Shown here: positions 2,666-61,073 of the stretch, piece by piece
Layout of the letters: each line of letters starts with the position of its first letter
Numbering within the stretch: the stretch's first letter is position 1
NCBI GenBank assembly: GCA_021813405.1
Contig: JAKAKS010000008.1
Span: forward strand, 62,771 to 126,770
DNA length: 64,000 nucleotides
Source of the DNA: Nitrospirota bacterium
GTDB taxonomy: Bacteria > Nitrospirota > Thermodesulfovibrionia > Thermodesulfovibrionales > JdFR-88
Direction: 5' to 3'
Translations under genes and position numbers: made by a program
The notes under the pieces: generated by a model
Databases searched by the model: none
The model's input: the letters and a program-made list of their open reading frames with translations, nothing else
Told to the model about the DNA's origin: nothing

Positions 2666-3124
2666 ATGGGTAAAAACAGGATTTCATGGTTGATGGCTGT
2701 CATTTTAGTGCTTTTCGCTGCTACCGTGGCGCAGGCCGCCTGGAGGGGCGGCATGGGCAGCGGCGGATGGGGTATGGGGTCGGCTTACCAGAGGATGTAC
2801 AATCCGCAGACCATTGAAACGGTTTCCGGTGTTGTGGAATCCGTGGAGAAATTCAAACCGATGAGAGGGATGTATTCCGGGATACACCTTATGGTCAAAA
2901 CGGAAAAGGGAGTTGTCCCGGTGCACCTTGGGCCGGACTGGTACATTGACAGGCAGGATGTAAAGTTTAAAAAGGGAGACAAGGTGGACGTTACGGGCTC
3001 AAAAATTACGTTTGATGGAAAGCCCGCAATCATCGCGCAGCAGATAAAAAAGGACGGCGGCACGCTTGTGCTAAGAAACAGCGCAGGCATACCGGAATGG
3101 GCAGGATGGCGCAGAGGCAGATGA
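2666..3124 (+). CDS. Secreted protein of unknown function (beta-rich, OB-fold-like C-terminal domain)
   Basis: 152 aa. Signal peptide ...LVLFAATVAQA, Gly/Trp-rich linker, AAGGAG RBS upstream. Confidence 0.6.
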   Translation: MGKNRISWLMAVILVLFAATVAQAAWRGGMGSGGWGMGSAYQRMYNPQTIETVSGVVESVEKFKPMRGMYSGIHLMVKTEKGVVPVHLGPDWYIDRQDVKFKKGDKVDVTGSKITFDGKPAIIAQQIKKDGGTLVLRNSAGIPEWAGWRRGR

Positions 3125-3150
3125 AAGGTCAAAAATTCATCTAAATCAGA

Positions 3151-3381
3151 CCGGTTAGCCGTTACCGCGGCATTTGCCGATATGCCTTTAAGCTCTCATC
3201 TTGGTTTTTTCTTTTTCCGAGGGCGGTGTTCGTCTGCGTTATGGCGCGGTCTTTTCCACCAGATCCACCGTGGTACCATGCGCGGCTCACATGAATACGG
3301 CAAACGGCCATCGCCGCTTGACTGCCGGCAGGTCCGCCGCGCCAATTCGCTCACAACCCGCCACGCTTTGCCCGGTACGTC
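3151..3381 (-). repeat. R1 interspersed structured element, copy A (candidate ncRNA)
   Basis: On the minus strand it contains GTGAGCGAA, CCGTATTCATGTGAGCCGCGC (3280-3300, identical to 58243-58263) and TAACGCAGACGAACACCGCCC (3221-3241), followed by TCGGAAAAAG. Only weak ORFs overlap it. Confidence 0.6.
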
Positions 3382-3566
3382 AAATGCAACATCAAAAAAT
3401 CTCTGTGAATAATTCGGGAGATGTCCCCAGATTATGCTGAGGCGCGCCCCTAACAGAGTCGAACACTGCCCCGCGAAAAAGTAAAACCCGGCTATTTTAA
3501 GATTCAGGTATATCGGCGAACGCCGCAAATAAACTTGCCCTATAGGAAACCAGCAGAGCCAAAAAT
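3325..3566 (+). repeat. R1 element, diverged copy F, head-to-head with and overlapping copy A
   Basis: GGTCCGCCGCGCCA (compare AGTCCGCCGCGCCA at 58161). TAACAGAGTCGAACACTGCC at 3451-3470, followed by CCGCGAAAAAGTAAAACCCGG (compare copy B). 3' ATATCGGCGAACGCCGC...CAGCAGAGCCAAAAA. Confidence 0.45.
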
Positions 3567-3642
3567 TACAAATGTGAAACGTATCTGTCTTTTTAGCTAA
3601 TTCCGCGCTATATGCAACATCGAAAAACTCTATTGTGTTAAT

Positions 3643-4198: not shown

Positions 4199-4570
4199 CA
4201 TGACACAAACTTAATGACATATGTCATATTGACGATGTCATGGCCTGCCGGGGTAAGATGGCGCTGGCAGAGGGGCTTGCCCGTTCCTGCTCTTTGAAAA
4301 AATGCCGTAAAATGACCGGCAAGCCGGAGAATAACCGCTAAAACGTTAATGTGACGCGGAGAGGTCCAAATCTCAAAAAAATCTCAAAAAATACGGCCAG
4401 TTACGTCTGGAACAGGCTTTTTGGGGCGAAAAATCAAAAACTTTTAAAATCGGGCAGTCAGGCGGAATTGACAACGGAAAAGATGGAACAAATGGAACAA
4501 AAATTTGGCCTTAAGCGGGCCGGAAATAAACGGAAATCCCGAAATTGCCGGAACATATAAAAAGAAAAGG
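4199..4570 (+). repeat. R2 element copy 1 (nested palindrome, GGA/GGAAC direct repeats, A-rich tail)
   Basis: CATGACACAAACT (4199-4211), TGGAACAAAAATTT (4493-4506) and GGAACATATAAAAAGAAAAGG (4550-4570) are each identical to blocks at 60618-60630, 60997-61010 and 61053-61073. Confidence 0.6.
4200..4243. promoter_or_regulatory. PAL motif: ATGACA-N8-ATGACATATGTCAT-N8-TGTCAT
   Basis: Central perfect 14-bp palindrome ATGACATATGTCAT at 4214-4227, with outer ATGACA/TGTCAT half-sites. Related sites at 16667, 30112 and 60611. Confidence 0.55.
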
Positions 4571-13292: not shown

Positions 13293-13480
13293 CCGGTTTG
13301 GCTATTCCGGAATTCCTGTGGGTGTATGGCGTGCTCCCAAAGGCTGTCACTCCAGAGCGAACAGCCGGATCCTGAGTCTTAGTGGCGGGTTTTACTTTTT
13401 CCGCGGGACGGTGTTCGTCTCCATTGGGGCCGCCGTCTTACGATTTTCTTTTGTTCAAATCATCGCTCATTTACCACCCG
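13293..13480 (-). repeat. R1 element copy B (candidate ncRNA)
   Basis: The minus strand reads GGGTGGTAAATGAGCGATGA...AATGGAGACGAACACCGTCCCGCGGAAAAAG...GCCTTTGGGAGCACGCCATACACCCACAGGAATTCCGGAATAGCCAAACCGG. The last module closely matches 17199-17246. Confidence 0.55.
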
Positions 13481-13569
13481 TTCCCCCCCCCGGGTAACGC
13501 AAACCAAACGGGCAGGGAACCCGGGAGAGTCAAATCCTGAAGCCCCTTTATTTAAAGGGCCCGGAAATG

Positions 13570-13601
13570 AAAAGCGCAGCCCGTTTGTGAGCGGGCCGCG
13601 C
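13570..13601 (-). terminator. Rho-independent terminator for the 13622-14365 gene
   Basis: Minus strand GCGCGGCCCGC-TCACAAA-CGGGCTGCGC followed by TTTT. Confidence 0.6.
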
Positions 13602-13621
13602 TTTCGCCAGATGTTTAAGAG

Positions 13622-16568: not shown

Positions 16569-16666
16569 GTCTTATGTACTATGCATGTTTTAAGCGGGGC
16601 TTTTCAACTGTGGATATCCCCCGGATGTCCCGGAACGGATTTTTTAACTTTGTTAAAAATGCTGGC

Positions 16667-16705
16667 ATGAATTTCATGACATATGTCATATGGACAATGT
16701 CATGG
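16667..16705. promoter_or_regulatory. PAL motif copy 2
   Basis: ATGAAT-N3-ATGACATATGTCAT-N8-TGTCAT. About 100 bp upstream of the divergent 16568 start codon. Confidence 0.55.
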
Positions 16706-16906
16706 CAACCGGTGTTTCAATAGGGGCAGGGCGGTTTTGTTTTGCCGCCAGGATCTTTTAAAAGCCTGATACAAGACGGGATCGCCACGGCCAATATGGC
16801 CTTGCCATTACAAAGCAAAGATTGAACGGATTTGAACGGTGAAATACGTGAAATGTTTTAAAATCAAAGGCTTGCGGATTTCAGGTTGAACACTAAAAAA
16901 AAGGGG
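16667..16906 (+). repeat. R2 element copy 2 (PAL, ATTTGAACGG direct repeat, A-rich tail), immediately upstream of R1 copy C
   Basis: ATGACATATGTCAT at 16676-16689. ATTGAACGGATTTGAACGG at 16821-16839. TTGAACACTAAAAAAAAGGGGG at 16886-16906 (compare GGAACATATAAAAAGAAAAGG). Confidence 0.55.
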
Positions 16907-16966
16907 GTTCTTCAGGATTTCCTGTGGGTAAAACAACTGCTTTTGCAGGCCGTTTGGTTTGCCTTG

Positions 16967-17250
16967 CCCGGGGAAGCGGGCGGTTTCGCGGAGTGGGCTG
17001 TGCGTGCGTACGTCTGCAAGTGCCTGGCTAGCAATAGCTCCGGCGCGGGCAAATTCGGTGAGACTGGTAAAGACATGGCGGAATCTAACGCAGACGAACA
17101 CCGCCTGCGAAAAAATCAGAGAGCAGGCTGGCCATTGGCAAATGAGTCAGCAGTGGCGGAAGCGAAGCCGTTGGGGTCCGGCTTTCGCCGTGGTGAGCGC
17201 CTTTGAGAGCACGCCATATAACCACAGGAATCTCGGTAGAGCCAAAAAAA
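16967..17250 (+). repeat. R1 element copy C (candidate ncRNA)
   Basis: TAACGCAGACGAACACCGCC at 17086-17105. 3' module GCCTTTGAGAGCACGCCATATAACCACAGGAATCTCGGTAGAGCCAAAAAAA at 17199-17250. An upstream CGTCTGC (about 17010) is complementary to GCAGACG. Confidence 0.6.
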
Positions 17251-17262
17251 GGAGGCAGCCGG

Positions 17263-22114: not shown

Positions 22115-23680
22115 ATGCGTAAAGTGGAGATATACGATACCACATTAAGAGACGGGGCGCAGGCCGAGGACCTTTCTTTTTCCGTGGAGGACAAACTCAG
22201 GATTACCCGAAAGCTTGACGAGCTTGGGGTGGACTATATAGAAGGCGGGTGGCCGGTTTCCAACCCGCGGGAGGCGGAATTCTTCAAGAAGGTCCAAAAG
22301 GAAAAGCTCTCCCGCTCCAGGATGGCCGTCTTCGGCAGCACCCACAGGCCCAGGCATAAGGTATCGGAGGACCTGAGCATGCGGGCCATCCTTGAAAGCG
22401 GCGCCTCCATTGCAACCATATTTGGAAAGACCTGGGATTTCCATGTTAAAGAGGCGTTTAAAATCCCGCTTGCCGAGAACCTGGAGATTATCTATGAATC
22501 CGTAAGGTTTCTTAAAAAGCACATGGAGAAGGTCTTTTTCGATGCGGAGCATTTCTTTGACGGATATGCAGCCAATCCCGAATACGCCATTAAATGCCTC
22601 GATGCGGCGGCCCAGGCAGGGGCGGATTGCCTGGTTTTGTGCGACACAAACGGGGGGACGCTTCCAGGCAAACTTGCGGAGGCGGCAGCTTCCGTAAAGA
22701 AGATGAAGTCGCCATTCGGCATACATGCCCATAACGACTCAGAGTGCGCCGTAGCCAACTCGGTTGCGGCGGTCGGTTTGGGGGCCTCCCAGGTGCAGGG
22801 CACAATAAACGGCTACGGCGAGCGCTGCGGCAACGCCAATCTCTGCTCCATAATACCCAATCTGAAACTCAAGATGAACGTGGACAGCCGTGCCGGGCGG
22901 TCATTGGATAAACTGACCGAGATTTCACGTTACGTAAGCGAGATATCGAACCTGAGGCCGTTCAAGCGCCAGCCTTTTGTAGGCGACAGCGCATTTGCGC
23001 ACAAGGCCGGTGTGCACGTGAACGCGGTGATGAAACACCCTGGAACGTACGAGCACATAGACCCGGAGCTTGTCGGCAATTCAAGGCGGGTGCTCCTTTC
23101 GGACCTGGCCGGGAAGAGCAATATTCTCAGGAAAGCCAGGGAGTTCAAAATCGAAATGGACGAAAAATCCCCGCTTGTTGGCGAGATAGTCCGTTCGCTG
23201 AAGGAACTGGAGGGGCAGGGTTTTCAGTTCGAGGCGGCCGAGGCCAGTTTTGAGCTTTTAATGAAGAAGGCGCTGGGGCTGCACAGGCGGTTTTTTGACC
23301 TGGCCGGTTTCAGGGTGATCGTGGAAAAAAGAAAAGAGGGAGAGCCTTCTGTCAGCGAGGCCACAATAATGCTGAAGGTGGGCGGGCATGTGGAGCATAC
23401 TGCCGCAACCGGCGACGGCCCGGTAAACGCGCTTGATAACGCTTTAAGAAAGGCATTGGAAAAGTTCTACCCGGAGCTGAAGGAGGTAAAACTCCAGGAC
23501 TACAAGGTGAGGGTGCTTACGACGGGCAAGGGCACATTCGCCAAGGTGCGGGTATTGATAGAATCCGGAGACGGAAAGCTCAAATGGGGGACGGTGGGGG
23601 TTTCGGAGAACATAATAGAGGCGTCTTACCAGGCGCTTGTGGACAGCATAGAATACAAGCTTTTAAAAGAAGAGGCCTAG
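22115..23680 (+). CDS. cimA: Citramalate synthase (long form)
   Basis: 521 aa. HMGL-like barrel ([15 protein letters not shown]) plus a LeuA-type C-terminal regulatory domain. Confidence 0.8.
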
Positions 23681-40248: not shown

Positions 40249-41016
40249 ATGGCCCAGGATGTTGCGGCAAGGTTGGATTTAAAGGGGCTTTCCACAGAGG
40301 TCCAGAACAGGGTTTTCCCGCTGTTGGCCGAGGTGCTGGAAGGCGAGGGGGACAACGTACACTCGCTTTATGTGGTCGGCGCGGCGGCATCCGGCGGGCA
40401 TTATGTGGCGGGGGGCGAGATAAACACCCTCATACTTTTAAAAGACCTCGATTTCCAATTTGTTAAAAAACTGGCTCCCAGCGGCAAGGTGCATGGCAAG
40501 AGGCGGCTTGCCCCGCCCATAGTCCTGCCGGACGCATTTGTCAGAGAGTCATCATATGCCTTCCCCGTGGAGTTCCTCAACTACAAATACGCGCACAAGA
40601 CCGTTTACGGCGAAGATATACTGGCCGGGGTGGAGATAGACAACAGGGCCTTGCGGCAGCAGTGCGAAAGAGAGCTTGCAACCAGGCTTATCACTTTGCG
40701 GCAGGAATATCTGTACTCCCGCGGAGAAGCCGGAGCGCTTGGCGGACGCTGCATGGCCTGGAGCAGGCCTTATATGCCGGTGCTGCGGGCCGTCCTTCAC
40801 CTTTTGGGGGCGGACGCGGCAGAGACAGGCGATTACGAGGTGCTTGAAAAAATATCCGCGCTAACCGGGGCGGATTTCATGGTGTTTGCTCATAAGGAAG
40901 AAAAGGAGAAATCGCCTCTTCGCTTCCTGAAGGCAGCCGCACACCACAAGAGTTTTGAAAAAATATACGAGGTTACGGAAAGGCTCAGTCATTTGGTAAA
41001 TGAGATTAAAGTCTAG
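40249..41016 (+). CDS. Hypothetical protein
   Basis: Start trimmed to ATG 40249 (GTG 40240 is also possible), because the upstream part of the ORF is antisense to panB. No family recognised with confidence. Confidence 0.5.
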   Translation: MAQDVAARLDLKGLSTEVQNRVFPLLAEVLEGEGDNVHSLYVVGAAASGGHYVAGGEINTLILLKDLDFQFVKKLAPSGKVHGKRRLAPPIVLPDAFVRESSYAFPVEFLNYKYAHKTVYGEDILAGVEIDNRALRQQCERELATRLITLRQEYLYSRGEAGALGGRCMAWSRPYMPVLRAVLHLLGADAAETGDYEVLEKISALTGADFMVFAHKEEKEKSPLRFLKAAAHHKSFEKIYEVTERLSHLVNEIKV

Positions 41017-41803
41017 GTTTTTTATTTTCGCTTTCGCATTTCTCTTCCTTGCAGCAGCTCCGATTGTTGCCGCAGGTGACACATCCGGTCCATCATCTTC
41101 TCAATCCGCGCAACAGACCGTTCTTCCCGCAAACCCTTCCGATTACGTTATGGACCTTGCGGGGATAATAGATGCGAACACAGCCTCGCGCATAGACGCG
41201 CTGTTAAAGGAGCTTGAGGAAAAGACCGGCGCGCAGGTTGTGGTCCTCACCGTCCCAAGCCTTAATGGGCAGGACATTGAGCAATTCTCGGTTGATACCG
41301 GCCAGAAATGGGGGCTTGGACAAAAGGGCAAGGATAACGGTTTCCTTTTTGTTGTGGCCCCAAATGAAAGAAAATACTGGTTTTCAACCGGGTACGGGCT
41401 TGAAGGCACTCTTCCGGACAGCTATCTTGGCACCCTTGGCAGACAGGTTTTGGTGCCCGCATTCAAGGCCGGCCAGTATTCGCAAGGCATAGAACAGGCC
41501 GTTGGAGTGGTCGCGCAGCGGATAGCAAGCCGGAAGGGCATAACCCTTACAGGCGTGCCGCAGCCTCAGCAGATGGAGCGCCAAAGGGCCTCTTTTGTCC
41601 CGCTCATATTCGGGGGCCTGTTCTTTCTGCTTATCATTATATCGGCATTCAGGGGCGGCCTGCCCCTCATCCTTTACCCGTTGCTCTTCGGAGGCGGCGG
41701 ATGGGGCGGAGGCGGCGGGTTTGGCGGCGGTTTCGGGGGCGGAGGCTTTGGCGGAGGCGGCGGAGGCAGTTTTGGCGGAGGCGGAGCGGGCGGAAGCTGG
41801 TAA
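41000..41803 (+). CDS. TPM-domain protein (YgcG-like) with TM and poly-Gly tail
   Basis: 267 aa. Signal peptide, TPM pattern (AQVVVLTVPSL...GFLFVVAPNERKYWFSTGYGLEG), C-terminal GGGGWGGGGGFGGG... Confidence 0.85.
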   Translation: MRLKSRFFIFAFAFLFLAAAPIVAAGDTSGPSSSQSAQQTVLPANPSDYVMDLAGIIDANTASRIDALLKELEEKTGAQVVVLTVPSLNGQDIEQFSVDTGQKWGLGQKGKDNGFLFVVAPNERKYWFSTGYGLEGTLPDSYLGTLGRQVLVPAFKAGQYSQGIEQAVGVVAQRIASRKGITLTGVPQPQQMERQRASFVPLIFGGLFFLLIIISAFRGGLPLILYPLLFGGGGWGGGGGFGGGFGGGGFGGGGGGSFGGGGAGGSW

Positions 41804-58072: not shown

Positions 58073-58154
58073 AAAAACCTGAATTCTCCCTCCCCCTTCA
58101 GAGAAGAGGGGTTTAAATAACATTATTCCCTTATCCGGTTTAATATAATTTATT

Positions 58155-58410
58155 CCCGGAAGTCCGCCGCGCCAGGTAAGGCGGGGTGGGTAGTGAGCGA
58201 AGTGGCCGGGCGAGCCATTTCTGACCAGTGGCGCGGCGTTGGCCGTATTCATGTGAGCCGCGCGGCGCAGTTCTTAATTTATTGAAGCGAGACTAGGCCC
58301 TGTAACGCAGACGAACCCCGCCCCTCGGAAAAAAGGAAAAACTCAAATGAGAGGGCCAGGCGTACCGGCGAATGCCGCCGGAAAACGGAACAAGAAGGGC
58401 CCCGGACCGG
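58155..58410 (+). repeat. R1 element copy D (candidate ncRNA; best reference copy)
   Basis: AGTCCGCCGCGCC (58161-58173) is complementary to GGCGCGGCG (58230-58238). GTGAGCGAA. CCGTATTCATGTGAGCCGCGC (58243-58263). TAACGCAGACGAACCCCGCC (58303-58322) followed by CCTCGGAAAAAAGG. Confidence 0.6.
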
Positions 58411-58478
58411 AATCAGCAAGAATGGCAATCAGGGGATTAAGCCGGATATGCATTTAAGATTATTCCCTGATGTAAAGT

Positions 58479-58985
58479 TCATTTTCGAAGCCCATTTTTT
58501 ATTTTTAGCAATCCATCTACAACCCTTCTGTTTGACGGGTCTTTCTGGAGGGCCTGTTTTAAATAAAACTCCGCCCGTTCAGGCAGCCCAAGCTTCAGGT
58601 AAACCAGCCCAAGTTCCGCCTGGATGGCTGGGTCCTCCCGGTCCAGCGAAAGCGCGCGGTGAAGTATCTTTACGGCTTCCTTGTGATTTTCCAGCCTGGC
58701 AAGCGTAGAGCCGTAATAAAACATGTATTCCGGTCTTTTCGGGTCCAGCCCCGCAGCGAGGGTGAAAAACACCTCCGCCTTTTTAAAGTCGTTGTTCGAA
58801 TAATAAACCCTGCCCTGGTTGAAATTCTCCGATGCGGATTTTGGGTCCGGCGCAAGCTTTACCGAAGCCCCCGGCCTAAGCGTTGCATCGTAATTTATCC
58901 GTTTCGCGGGGTCTATCAGGTTAGCGTACGCAATCGAAATCCTGGAAAAAATAGCATTGAGCTTGTCCGTCAGTTCCACTGGCAT
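58479..58985 (-). CDS. 3' segment of a frameshifted J-domain/TPR gene (C-terminal J-domain helices plus TPR repeats)
   Basis: 168-aa ORF. The same frame stays open upstream and reads GQKAEPPEIKKAYYKAAREFHPDKNFH before the annotated M. TPR units follow. Confidence 0.7.
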   Translation of the reverse strand: MPVELTDKLNAIFSRISIAYANLIDPAKRINYDATLRPGASVKLAPDPKSASENFNQGRVYYSNNDFKKAEVFFTLAAGLDPKRPEYMFYYGSTLARLENHKEAVKILHRALSLDREDPAIQAELGLVYLKLGLPERAEFYLKQALQKDPSNRRVVDGLLKIKNGLRK

Positions 58986-59038: not shown

Positions 59039-60301
59039 TTATCTCCGGAGGTTCCGCTTTTTGTCCCAGAGGCCAAGCATTTCGTAATGGTCGTATTTTC
59101 CAAGCATCCGGTGCATCTCGTCTATCCTGGTGATTTGCTCTTTGGTTATATTCAGCGCATTTTCGCTAGCAGCGCTTGTGGGGCCGGTGTTATCGTTCCT
59201 TGTGCTGCCGGCATCACCGGCCGGAACCGGTCCTTCAACTTTCCCGGTGTATGCTCCTCTTGCCGTGGCCGGTTTAGAGCGCCCGGCGTCTTCGCGGCTT
59301 TCTTCCGGTGCGTCCTGGCTTGTTTCAGGCTGGTCTTTCAGCTCAAGGGTCCTTGCGTAGAGCAGGGCGTAAATAGTTTGCAAGGTCTTCGATTCAGGAA
59401 AGGGGGCTTCCTTAACAATTTCACTGAGATGCCGCCGCCCATCCGCCAGAGACATTATCATTTTGTCCTCGGAGGGAATCTTCATCGCCTGGAACAGATG
59501 CAGCGGATAAGAAAAAGGCGCGATAACGGAATCTTCCCGCAGCCCAGCCTCAAAAACCGCATTTTTATCGGCTGTGCGCTTGATGCCGCGATAGATCAGG
59601 TCCGGCGCGGAAATCTTCAGCCGCAGCAGGTTGTCGGGGAGCGGGCCATCATGGAAAAGAAAGGACCCTTCATGTAGGGAAAACACCCCAAGGCAAATCT
59701 CCTCCAGTTGACTGTAAACGGCTTTTATCATGTCATTTGGCGTAAGAGCGCCCAGTTCCACAAGGATGGCGCCCTGTTTCCTGCCGGTGGTTTTTAAAAG
59801 CTCCACGGATTTTTCGTACTGTTGGCGGGTGATTGTCCCCTTCCTAAGAAGCATGTCACCGAGGCTGTCTTCCACCTGGTTGGATGAAGAAAAGACGATA
59901 TTGCCCTGCTGCAAGTATATTTTCCTGACGGCCTGGTCTCTTCTGAATTCCAGAACACCGGTTTCTGCCGCCCCGCAGAGCCCCGTAAATATGTCTGGCG
60001 CCGTGAAAACGGAAAGCGAGCCTTCCACGTTTCTGGCCAGCGAGAGCCCTATTTTCTGGCCGCCGTGCCATATCACTTTGGCTTCGCAATGGAAATCAGG
60101 GTTTTTGCAGGAGACCTCAATTGTCCGGCCTACCGCCGAGAGGATTTTCCTGTCCGCCTGGACGCCTGCGCCCAGGATTGAATAGTCTTGCAGGGTGGCT
60201 TCTGCCGTCTCTTTGTTTATGGTTATCCGGAGCGGATTGTCTTTGCTGTTTTTAAACCTTCTGAACTGCCTTTTTTCGGGCGATTGCCAGCGTTTGCTCA
60301 T
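59039..60301 (-). CDS. 5' segment of the same gene: PilZ + DUF4388 + start of the J domain
   Basis: PilZ motifs RQFRR and DYSILG. DUF4388-like LEFRRDQAVRKIYLQQGNIVFSSS...LGDMLLRKGTIT. Ends ...KYDHYEMLGLWDKKRNLRR*, so the J domain is interrupted. Confidence 0.7.
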   Translation of the reverse strand: MSKRWQSPEKRQFRRFKNSKDNPLRITINKETAEATLQDYSILGAGVQADRKILSAVGRTIEVSCKNPDFHCEAKVIWHGGQKIGLSLARNVEGSLSVFTAPDIFTGLCGAAETGVLEFRRDQAVRKIYLQQGNIVFSSSNQVEDSLGDMLLRKGTITRQQYEKSVELLKTTGRKQGAILVELGALTPNDMIKAVYSQLEEICLGVFSLHEGSFLFHDGPLPDNLLRLKISAPDLIYRGIKRTADKNAVFEAGLREDSVIAPFSYPLHLFQAMKIPSEDKMIMSLADGRRHLSEIVKEAPFPESKTLQTIYALLYARTLELKDQPETSQDAPEESREDAGRSKPATARGAYTGKVEGPVPAGDAGSTRNDNTGPTSAASENALNITKEQITRIDEMHRMLGKYDHYEMLGLWDKKRNLRR

Positions 60302-60610
60302 GCGGCTTCCGCAAATGAGATGAGGTTTGTTGTAAACCTGTTAGCGCAAGGAACTGATTTAAAAAAACATAAAATACGCAACAGTACCTGATTCCTCTAC
60401 TTTTTGGCTCTATATTTGTACCAGTTATATCCACCAAATTTCAAGCGTTTTTTCAAGTTGGTCCGCTTAACTCACTAATTATTCATTCTTTCCATTAATT
60501 CCGGTGACACAAATCAGCGTTTGTTTGAAGGGAAGTAAACGGCTCAGGCGGAATGGGCATGAGTCCCGGTTTTCCTGTGTACTCAACACTCCTTGGCCTG
60601 TATCCCTTCC

Positions 60611-60668
60611 GGCAAAGCATGACACAAACTTTATGATATATGTCATATGGACTATGTCATGCTTTGCC
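60611..60668. promoter_or_regulatory. PAL motif copy 4, with 14-nt outer inverted arms
   Basis: GGCAAAGCATGACA-N8-ATGATATATGTCAT-N8-TGTCATGCTTTGCC. Confidence 0.55.
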
Positions 60669-61073
60669 GTGTTATGATCGCGGGTGGCGGGAACCCACCC
60701 CGGCCCTGCGCCCACCCCTCCGAAGAGGGTGGTTGCCAAAGGCCCTTTAAAAAAGACATCTGCCGGAATAGGTGATAACGCAAATGCCAAATTAGATTCC
60801 CGGTTAAAACGATCGGCAATGGCGGAGAAAAGATTTTTAAAGGCAGGGGTTTACAAACGTAAAAGGCTTGAAAAAACAGGAGGTTAGGTTTGTTCCAATT
60901 TTTTAGTTATGTTGCAGGCTGGAAGTTGAAATCATTAAAAAACGGGCACTTAGGGGTGGGGCTTCACTGCGAAAAGTATGGAACAGATGGAACAAGTGGA
61001 ACAAAAATTTAGGCCCAAGTTATTGAAAATAAAACGAAATACCAAAAAAGCTGGAACATATAAAAAGAAAAGG
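60611..61073 (+). repeat. R2 element copy 3 (extended palindrome, GGAAC triple repeat, A-rich tail)
   Basis: GGCAAAGCATGACA...TGTCATGCTTTGCC. ATGGAACAGATGGAACAAGTGGAACAAAAATTT at 60978-61010. GGAACATATAAAAAGAAAAGG at 61053-61073. Confidence 0.6.

Follow-up and report, generated by a model that had tools for sequence, protein, structure and literature searches.

A modular intergenic repeat family in a Nitrospirota bacterium: structured RNA or decayed mobile element?

Background

Do conserved blocks of sequence that recur in fixed order between the genes of a bacterial chromosome form a family of structured RNAs, or are they a dispersed DNA repeat? The question is raised by a 64-kb stretch of a Nitrospirota bacterium (assembly GCA_021813405.1, contig JAKAKS010000008.1, positions 62,771 to 126,770), here referred to as the window, in which an element designated R1 is found in several intergenic gaps. 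An earlier reading of the sequence (the original prediction) described R1 as an unannotated, modular, multi-copy and non-coding element that looks like a structured RNA, and offered three options for its nature: a family of small RNA (sRNA) genes, a non-autonomous mobile element, or a remnant of a guide or scaffold RNA. The description holds: R1 is a real family of non-coding, intergenic, multi-copy and modular repeats, 90-360 nt in length. The structured-RNA interpretation is not supported by any test that we ran, and the evidence favors the second option. We give a probability of about one half to the reading that R1 is a degenerate, lineage-restricted family resembling miniature inverted-repeat transposable elements (MITEs), with a mosaic build similar to that of bacterial interspersed mosaic elements (BIMEs) and BOX elements.

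The genes of the window are those of an ordinary chromosome, among them genes for lipid A synthesis, BamA, purA, a two-component system with a sigma-54 activator, and an RND pump. Relatives of the encoded proteins come from sources with names including Nitrospirae, Thermodesulfovibrionales and Dissulfurispiraceae. The gene and Pfam tables available to us cover most of the window, and about 13 kb of flanking sequence beyond it was examined as well. No gene for a transposase, reverse transcriptase, Cas protein, TnpB, IscB or integrase is present in these tables.

Results

Copies and modules of R1

BLASTN comparisons of the four R1-containing intergenic gaps against the window, together with a search using a profile of the core of the element, recover five copies of R1, 120-340 nt long, and no more (Table 1). 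This is the number of copies originally predicted, distributed over four intergenic gaps rather than five, as A and F share the gap at 3125-3642, where they form an inverted pair. The additional fragment that had been claimed is reduced to a single candidate at 60386-60412, an exact 12-nt seed at the level of chance: approximately 1,500 12-mers of the element compared with 128,000 positions lead to about 11 chance matches. The orientation of the copies is mixed. They abut the stop codons or terminators of neighboring genes, D and C being located between convergent genes and C directly downstream of the terminator hairpin of a TPR gene (13571-13604).

All copies contain a core of about 90 nt around TAACGCAGACGAACACCGCC, in which ...CTAACGCAGACGAACACCGCC is followed by 6-8 C/G-rich nucleotides and then by AAAAAG...CAGGYATAYCGGCGAAYGCCGC. 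The C/G-rich stretch and the A-run after the block had been noted before and are present in all copies, although B has AAAAAAT where AAAAAG was claimed. The block TAACGCAGACGAACACCGCC occurs exactly in B and in A (starting in A at 3222 rather than at 3221, as first given) and with one mismatch in D, and its diverged versions in C and in F (3451-3470, plus strand) are recovered by both BLASTN and the profile search, with E values from 1e-12 to 1e-25. Shuffled sequences never yielded the block. Identity between copies in the core alignment is 40-60%, and reaches 80% between F and a copy from another genome (L004, a locus in a Nitrospirae metagenome-assembled genome, MAG). An internal block of 14-20 nt, AGACGAACACCG, is near-invariant although the rest of R1 is heavily diverged.

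Outside the core, A and D have a 130-nt 5' module of their own in common (69% identity over 219 nt), and the 21-mer CCGTATTCATGTGAGCCGCGC has two exact occurrences in the window, 58243-58263 (+) and 3280-3300 (-), as had been reported, with no match in shuffled sequences. B and C have a different 5' module, with the common 5' terminus GGnnCTTCAGGATTT, and in addition a 75-nt 3' module, at 80-83% identity. The 3' module had also been recognized earlier; 17193-17246 matches 13297-13350 over 54 nt at 83%, and the similarity extends to 17174-17246 versus 13372-13297 at 80%. Copy F is a core-only form with a 3' terminus of the B/C type (...AGAGCC, then an A-run), and the terminus ...AGGAAnnCnGnAnAGCC followed by an A-run is common to B, C, and F. 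The order of the modules is constant, and their length and sequence vary.

Indels disrupt every reading frame between homologous copies. The only public gene call inside a copy, a 106-aa frame with no Pfam hit, lies in B (9139-9459 of L005, a contig of GCA_027347715.1, corresponding by coordinate conversion to 16886-17206 of the window, plus strand). This call is probably spurious, because the homologous copy C has deletions of 29-36 nt across it, and we agree with the original prediction that no copy overlaps a credible open reading frame (ORF). Small toxin or peptide ORFs were considered as a separate candidate and rejected, as indels of 1-2 nt disrupt the frames when A is compared with D, or F with L004.

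Boundaries of the copies and an empty site in a sister species

Copy B is bounded by terminal inverted repeats that match at 18 of 25 positions, a score reached by none of 2000 random segments of 338 nt. Both arms abut a candidate target-site duplication, and the two duplicates agree at 9 of 10 positions; random segments reach such a direct repeat with a frequency of 0.2% when flanks of 14 nt are considered and 0.9% with flanks of 24 nt. The inverted repeat of D matches at 11 of 12 positions in a 12-nt test window (P = 0.0007 for random segments), or at 12 of 13 over 13 nt by eye, and is flanked by a perfect direct repeat (10/10) that 0.17% of random segments reach. A and F together make up a composite bounded by inverted cores (3166-3190 versus 3503-3527, 19/25, reached by no random segment), with arms of about 85 nt each, about 200 nt apart. 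Neither C nor A alone has a significant terminal inverted repeat or direct repeat, and no flanking direct repeat was found at A+F, F, or L004 (in the latter two by reading the sequence). Candidate target-site duplications, which the original prediction had mentioned as something to look for, are thus found at B and D.

Table 1. Coordinates of the R1 copies and of their parts and boundaries in the window
Feature	Position	Strand	Details
Copy D (reference; A/D subfamily)	58150-58417	+	BLASTN to A 69% over 219 nt, E 1e-23; profile E 1.8e-19
Copy D, body homologous to A	58172-58383	+	Pairwise alignment
Copy D, core block TAACGCAGACGAACCCCGCC	58303-58322	+	One mismatch to TAACGCAGACGAACACCGCC
Copy D, small hairpin CGGCGAATGCCG	58366-58377	+	
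Copy D, left boundary: direct repeat ATTATTCCCT, then inverted-repeat arm TATCCGGTTTAAT	58122-58131; 58132-58144		
Copy D, right boundary: inverted-repeat arm ATTAAGCCGGATA, then direct repeat ATTATTCCCT	58436-58448; 58459-58468		10-nt spacer between arm and direct repeat
Copy A (A/D subfamily)	3150-3387	-	Core block 3222-3241; 21-mer common with D at 3280-3300
Copy F (short form: core and 3' terminal motif ...CAGCAGAGCC)	3438-3560	+	BLASTN, profile, alignment
Copy C (B/C subfamily)	13297-13546	-	Core block 13406-13425
Copy B (B/C subfamily)	16906-17243	+	Core block 17086-17105
Copy B, terminal inverted repeats GGTTCTTCAGGATTTCCTGTGGGTA / TAACCACAGGAATCTCGGTAGAGCC	16906-16930; 17219-17243		18/25 match over 25 nt
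Copy B, candidate target-site duplication, left, AAAAAAAGGG	16896-16905		Abuts inverted-repeat arm
Copy B, candidate target-site duplication, right, AAAAAAAGGA	17244-17253		Abuts inverted-repeat arm

A locus of a sister species (L023) has the same gene order as the surroundings of B (DZR_2 - GT87 - PHP - TPR), with a GT87 protein 78% identical and flanking DNA 77-85% identical to those of the window. Both flanks of the gap between DZR_2 and GT87 align between the two species, and the approximately 345 nt that form copy B, located in the window directly after the DZR_2 stop codon, are absent from the sister species, where a single AAAAAAAGGGAGG is found. A palindromic operator-like motif in the same gap is kept at 84%. 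Relative to the sister species, copy B is an insertion or deletion with terminal inverted repeats and a direct repeat of 9-10 bp. Among strains that are 99.6-100% identical, no differences in the presence or absence of R1 were found.

The gap has a further difference between the two species. In the sister species, the operator-like motif and GT87 are separated by an inserted VapB/VapC (PIN) toxin-antitoxin pair (L023 2641-3247, equivalent to about 16620-16650 of the window), and the window has none, which indicates that the same gap took different insertions in the two lineages.

Distribution of R1

R1-bearing sequence is also present in contigs of several other samples and assemblies from NCBI, ENA, and Logan (GCA_027347715.1, GCA_027414875.1, GCA_027414835.1, ERZ272375xx, SRR17201078, SRR13299515), at 99.6-100% identity and with every covered copy in place. 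This rules out an assembly artefact, a possibility that the original prediction had raised. Some contigs from these sources end or switch inside copies, at window positions 3309 (two contigs), 58233, 58240, and 16949, which suggests that further similar copies exist elsewhere in the genome. The high genome-wide copy number proposed earlier is plausible on this evidence but unproven, given that the copies are clumped, with none from 17.3 to 58.1 kb and none in the additional flanking sequence.

At one of these positions, contig L038 (ERZ27237541, 3952-4062) follows copy D to ...GCGCGGCTCACAT (junction at window 58240) and then continues with 111 nt foreign to the window. This tail is open in one frame (ELRRAAHITRQSLGFYRENASWTPISLPNLIDEVVGIYSSKLKARQI), and a protein search with the 47-aa peptide derived from it found no match. 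The junction is either a chimera formed through a common 23-mer or a real rearrangement at an R1 copy.

Beyond these near-identical sequences the family is rare. Scanning one genome per species from 185,579 species for 20-mers of R1 yielded one true homologue, the L004 copy, which is 89% identical to F over 90 nt and begins 5 nt past the stop codon of an ABC ATPase gene, in unrelated, non-syntenic flanks. The other three of the four hits (L001-L003) lie in coding sequence and were rejected. No R1 homologue was found by a relaxed-pattern scan of 241 million metagenome records; the 17 loci that it returned (L006-L022) match by chance and have dissimilar flanks. Neither whole copies nor the A/D and B/C blocks matched anything in phages, plasmids, or viral contigs, the literature searches were likewise negative, and about 90 kb of sequence from related genomes contained no R1 copy.

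Tests of RNA structure and expression

A scan of the whole window with Rfam 15 at gathering thresholds detects tRNA-Gln only, and when E values up to 10 are admitted for the gaps containing D and A/F, nothing but chance miRNA and snoRNA matches appears. Compared with dinucleotide shuffles, copy D folds no better than random on either strand (z = -0.36 and 0.00), and sub-modules of B, C, F, and D have z values between -0.1 and -1.1. For the forward strand of six cores, RNAalifold predicts a single 4-bp hairpin, CGGC-NNNN-GCCG, which is without compensatory changes and has one or two of its pairs disrupted in C and B; for the reverse strand it predicts 15 weak pairs with one compensatory change. 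Six sequences provide little power, and the absence of a consensus structure is weak evidence. The sole helix predicted within the core block depends on G-U pairs and on the reverse strand.

The internal complementarity in D, which the original prediction had cited, is real in that 58165-58174 pairs with 58229-58238 at 10 of 10 positions, but it is absent from A, the closest homologue. The complementary segments reflect recurrent GCGCGGCG-like strings, and A does not retain the helices predicted for D. The 3' module of B and C folds as one hairpin with a few two-sided changes (GGCUUU/UAGAGCC versus GGCUGU/AAUAGCC; G-C to A-U), to which we attach little weight, as they come from two-sequence alignments. 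Consensus scans found no sigma-70-like promoter or intrinsic terminator common to the copies, and the copies end in an A-run, not a U-run.

Several more specific ideas were tried and rejected. A Qrr-like role with sigma-54 promoters, suggested by the activator next to D, finds no TGGCAC-N5-TTGCW near any copy, and the counts of this motif in the window are below those in shuffled sequences. GGA motifs, of which a CsrA sponge would have many, occur at background frequency. The 5' block could have been a degenerate inverted core, but local alignments are no better than those of shuffled sequences except in B (where 9 of 300 shuffles reached its score), and the core profile matches nothing in the 5' modules. 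Readings of the core as a tRNA T-arm, an attC site, or a dif-like site were dismissed by inspection. A comparison of strain SNP (single-nucleotide polymorphism) density inside and outside the copies had no power, as the SNPs are clustered.

Discussion

R1 as a possible degenerate MITE-like family

The favored interpretation rests on a combination of features: R1 is multi-copy and non-coding, it occurs in either orientation at gene 3' ends and A/T tracts, one copy has an empty site in a related species, some copies have inverted and direct repeats, and the host range is narrow. Under this interpretation, the copies would be non-autonomous DNA insertions into A/T-rich tracts just downstream of genes, in either orientation, which have since been fixed and have decayed. 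Their mobilization would have depended on a transposase acting in trans from another part of the genome. The family is probably inactive now, because there is no presence or absence difference among strains 99.6-100% identical and the copies are only 40-80% identical across the core. The near-invariant block is most simply seen as a sequence-specific site, in which the sequence of AGACGAACACCG, rather than a helix, would be what is conserved; candidate roles are a cis site recognized by the mobilizing enzyme and a contact for a host protein or RNA.

A number of observations weigh against this interpretation. The gene tables of the window contain neither an autonomous partner element nor a transposase gene, and divergence between the copies is far greater than in a MITE family that was active recently. 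B and D have terminal repeats of unlike sequence, C and A alone have no significant ones, and the best-conserved segment is internal rather than terminal, the reverse of a textbook MITE. The direct repeat on the right side of D is offset by 10 nt from the inverted repeat, and that of B is low-complexity and A-rich and overlaps the 3' A-run common to B, C, and F. The empty site is one case only, and it comes from a comparison between species. Finally, self-complementary ends that differ between copies around conserved blocks would also fit a covarying closing helix, in RNA or in single-stranded DNA.

Several known systems can be compared with R1. Bacterial MITEs include Correia/NEMIS of Neisseria, RUP of Streptococcus pneumoniae, and Nezha of cyanobacteria. 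Like R1, MITEs are short (about 100-400 nt), non-coding, multi-copy, intergenic elements found in either orientation, often near gene ends and within one lineage; they have terminal inverted and flanking direct repeats (as in B and D), have empty sites in relatives (as for B), and break short-read assemblies where copies are similar. Unlike in MITEs, the terminal repeats of R1 vary by copy, the best-conserved segment is internal, copies are 40-80% identical in the core alignment, target duplications are seen in two of five copies only, and no parent insertion sequence or transposase was found. The enterobacterial BIMEs, built from repetitive extragenic palindromic (REP) sequences, and the pneumococcal BOX elements (boxA-boxB-boxC) share with R1 a mosaic build, in which a common module is joined to alternative flanking ones in fixed order and variable number or length, the location at gene 3' ends, and a sequence specific to the species. 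R1 differs from them in having no sequence similarity, a core of about 90 nt instead of a short palindrome, no visible RAYT (REP-associated tyrosine transposase), and no boxB-like tandem repeats. ERIC (enterobacterial repetitive intergenic consensus) elements, or intergenic repeat units, of Enterobacteriaceae are located in transcribed intergenic regions. They are imperfect palindromes of at least 100 nt with internal indel variants, and long imperfect inverted repeats are likewise formed in R1 by the pair A+F and by the ends of B and of D; in contrast to ERIC, which spans genera, R1 is known from one species-level lineage and one MAG, its copies are less alike, and it has no sequence similarity to ERIC.

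On present data, R1 is an ordinary feature of bacterial genomes, a species-specific dispersed repeat, and listing it among candidate structured RNAs is not warranted. R1 accounts for several intergenic gaps without annotation in the gene tables of these contigs, and it is the probable reason for the breaks at these points in short-read assemblies of the lineage. Used as a marker, it could aid the binning of these MAGs and the tracking of strains. Should the core block be a binding site, or the copies be transcribed, R1 would offer a handle on regulation at gene ends in a group without genetics.

Alternative interpretations

We consider it unlikely, while deserving to be kept in view, that R1 is a DNA element of the REP/BIME type with a host function near gene ends, such as nucleoid organization, stabilization of mRNA 3' ends, or termination, and that it has spread by recombination or by a RAYT-like enzyme. 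The mosaic arrangement, in which the core occurs alone (F, L004) or within two different bodies, would be expected of such elements, as would the invariant block of 14-20 nt amid heavy divergence and the position of the copies against stop codons or terminators. In L004, as read from the sequence, the A-run of the core pairs with a downstream U-rich stretch followed by UUUUUU, so that a terminator-like hairpin may follow the ABC ATPase gene. This arrangement, however, is not seen in the copies of the window, whose orientation relative to the neighboring gene is mixed, and the gene tables of the window contain no RAYT (Y1 transposase). R1 also does not show the combination by which REP and REPIN elements are recognized (a palindrome of 20-40 nt, inverted doublets, and a RAYT): its units are 90-340 nt long, the core is not palindromic, and A+F is an inverted doublet, but a long-armed one.

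Slightly less likely still is the possibility that the copies are paralogous genes of small or medium-sized RNAs, in which the invariant core would serve for seed pairing or protein binding and the variable parts would form species-specific stems. Conserved blocks in fixed order with variable spacers are consistent with this possibility, as is the location of D and C between convergent genes, where independent sRNA genes often sit. The ends of B, D, and A+F are self-complementary yet different, in the manner of a covarying closing helix, and both the two-sided changes in the B/C hairpin and the helix predicted in the core block could be counted in its favor, the latter through G-U pairs and in the reverse strand only. 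Against this stand the Rfam, folding, and consensus-structure results described above, the loss in A of the helices predicted for D, and the lack of a common sigma-70 or sigma-54 promoter and of a terminator. The upstream flanks of the copies are unrelated to each other, the sister species lacks B at the corresponding site, and relatives lack the family; RNA genes would also leave the direct repeats flanking B and D unexplained. The closest analogy is with Qrr1-5 of Vibrio, paralogues with one invariant block located beside the sigma-54 activator LuxO, as copy D adjoins a sigma-54-type response-regulator operon. Unlike the Qrr sRNAs, which are two to four times shorter, R1 has no sigma-54 promoter near its copies, no terminator, and no conserved upstream region, and one copy is absent in the sister species.

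A related and improbable alternative is that the copies are functional folded nucleic acids, either an RNA family or single-stranded DNA hairpins recognized by an HUH-type enzyme or a recombinase, in which invariant single-stranded blocks would be enclosed by a covarying closing helix made up of the ends of B, D, and A+F. Because variable self-complementary ends are what a closing helix would produce, we keep a small but appreciable probability for RNA or single-stranded DNA structure in general. If the copies were such folded elements, R1 would be a new class of structured element, of which an uncultured Nitrospirota lineage would carry hundreds in each genome.

Very improbable is the last option of the original prediction, a guide or scaffold RNA remnant (here considered as TnpB/IscB omega RNA or retron non-coding RNA), as is an origin of the copies from integron attC sites, the protein gene having been lost in either case: the resemblance is general (non-coding sequence, hairpin-rich ends, positions beside stop codons), the gene tables contain none of the proteins concerned, HEARO and the other Rfam models do not match, CCCTAAC on the 5' side of the core has in no copy a GTTRRRY partner to complete the RYYYAAC ... 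GTTRRRY pair (judged by reading), and the surrounding housekeeping genes in mixed orientation do not form a cassette array.

Other features of the window

A second family of intergenic repeats, R2, is located at 4199-4570, 60618-61073, and 16661-16725 of the window, and also at 4066-4130 of L004 and 2494-2568 of L023. It begins with a palindrome-rich block, CATGACACAAACTTAATGACATATGTCATATTGACGATGTCATGG, in which several ATGACA/TGTCAT half-sites overlap a TTGACA-like hexamer; about 19 nt downstream is a second hexamer, similar to TATGAT/TAAGAT. Two copies have, approximately 270-360 nt on (start to start), a further block that contains GGAACATATAAAAAGAAAAGG and direct repeats of TGGAACA spaced by 10-11 nt. 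In the sister species, the corresponding site retains the operator-like block of R2 at 84%, and Rfam searches with R2 gave weak chance matches only. R2 looks like a regulon operator or promoter rather than a part of R1.

On the minus strand beside copy D, at 58479-58985 and 59039-60301, a TPR protein (168 aa) and a PilZ-DUF4388 protein (420 aa) are encoded by separate ORFs. Relatives have one protein of 565-625 aa, which additionally contains DnaJ and TPR domains, and the gene thus appears to be split or truncated here. Around 22639-22848 of the window (L005 1-3496; L042), assembly GCA_027347715.1 breaks inside a gene similar to HMGL/LeuA, and its contig 8 runs on for 3.5 kb (EamA, pyridoxal decarboxylase) without matching the window, which could reflect a mis-join between paralogues in one of the assemblies or a difference between strains. 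Repeats of the GGCGG(A/C)GG type, 9-21 nt in length, are found at 41687-41802, at the 3' end of a TPM_phosphatase-family ORF (41000-41803); by reading, they encode a glycine-rich tail and are unrelated to R1. The 152-aa protein encoded beside copy A (2666-3124, plus strand) yielded no domain at E <= 0.001 in our own Pfam scan and has, in the gene tables, a precomputed hit to MamS_MamX (PF26390), which may hint at magnetosome-related genes in this lineage of Nitrospirota.

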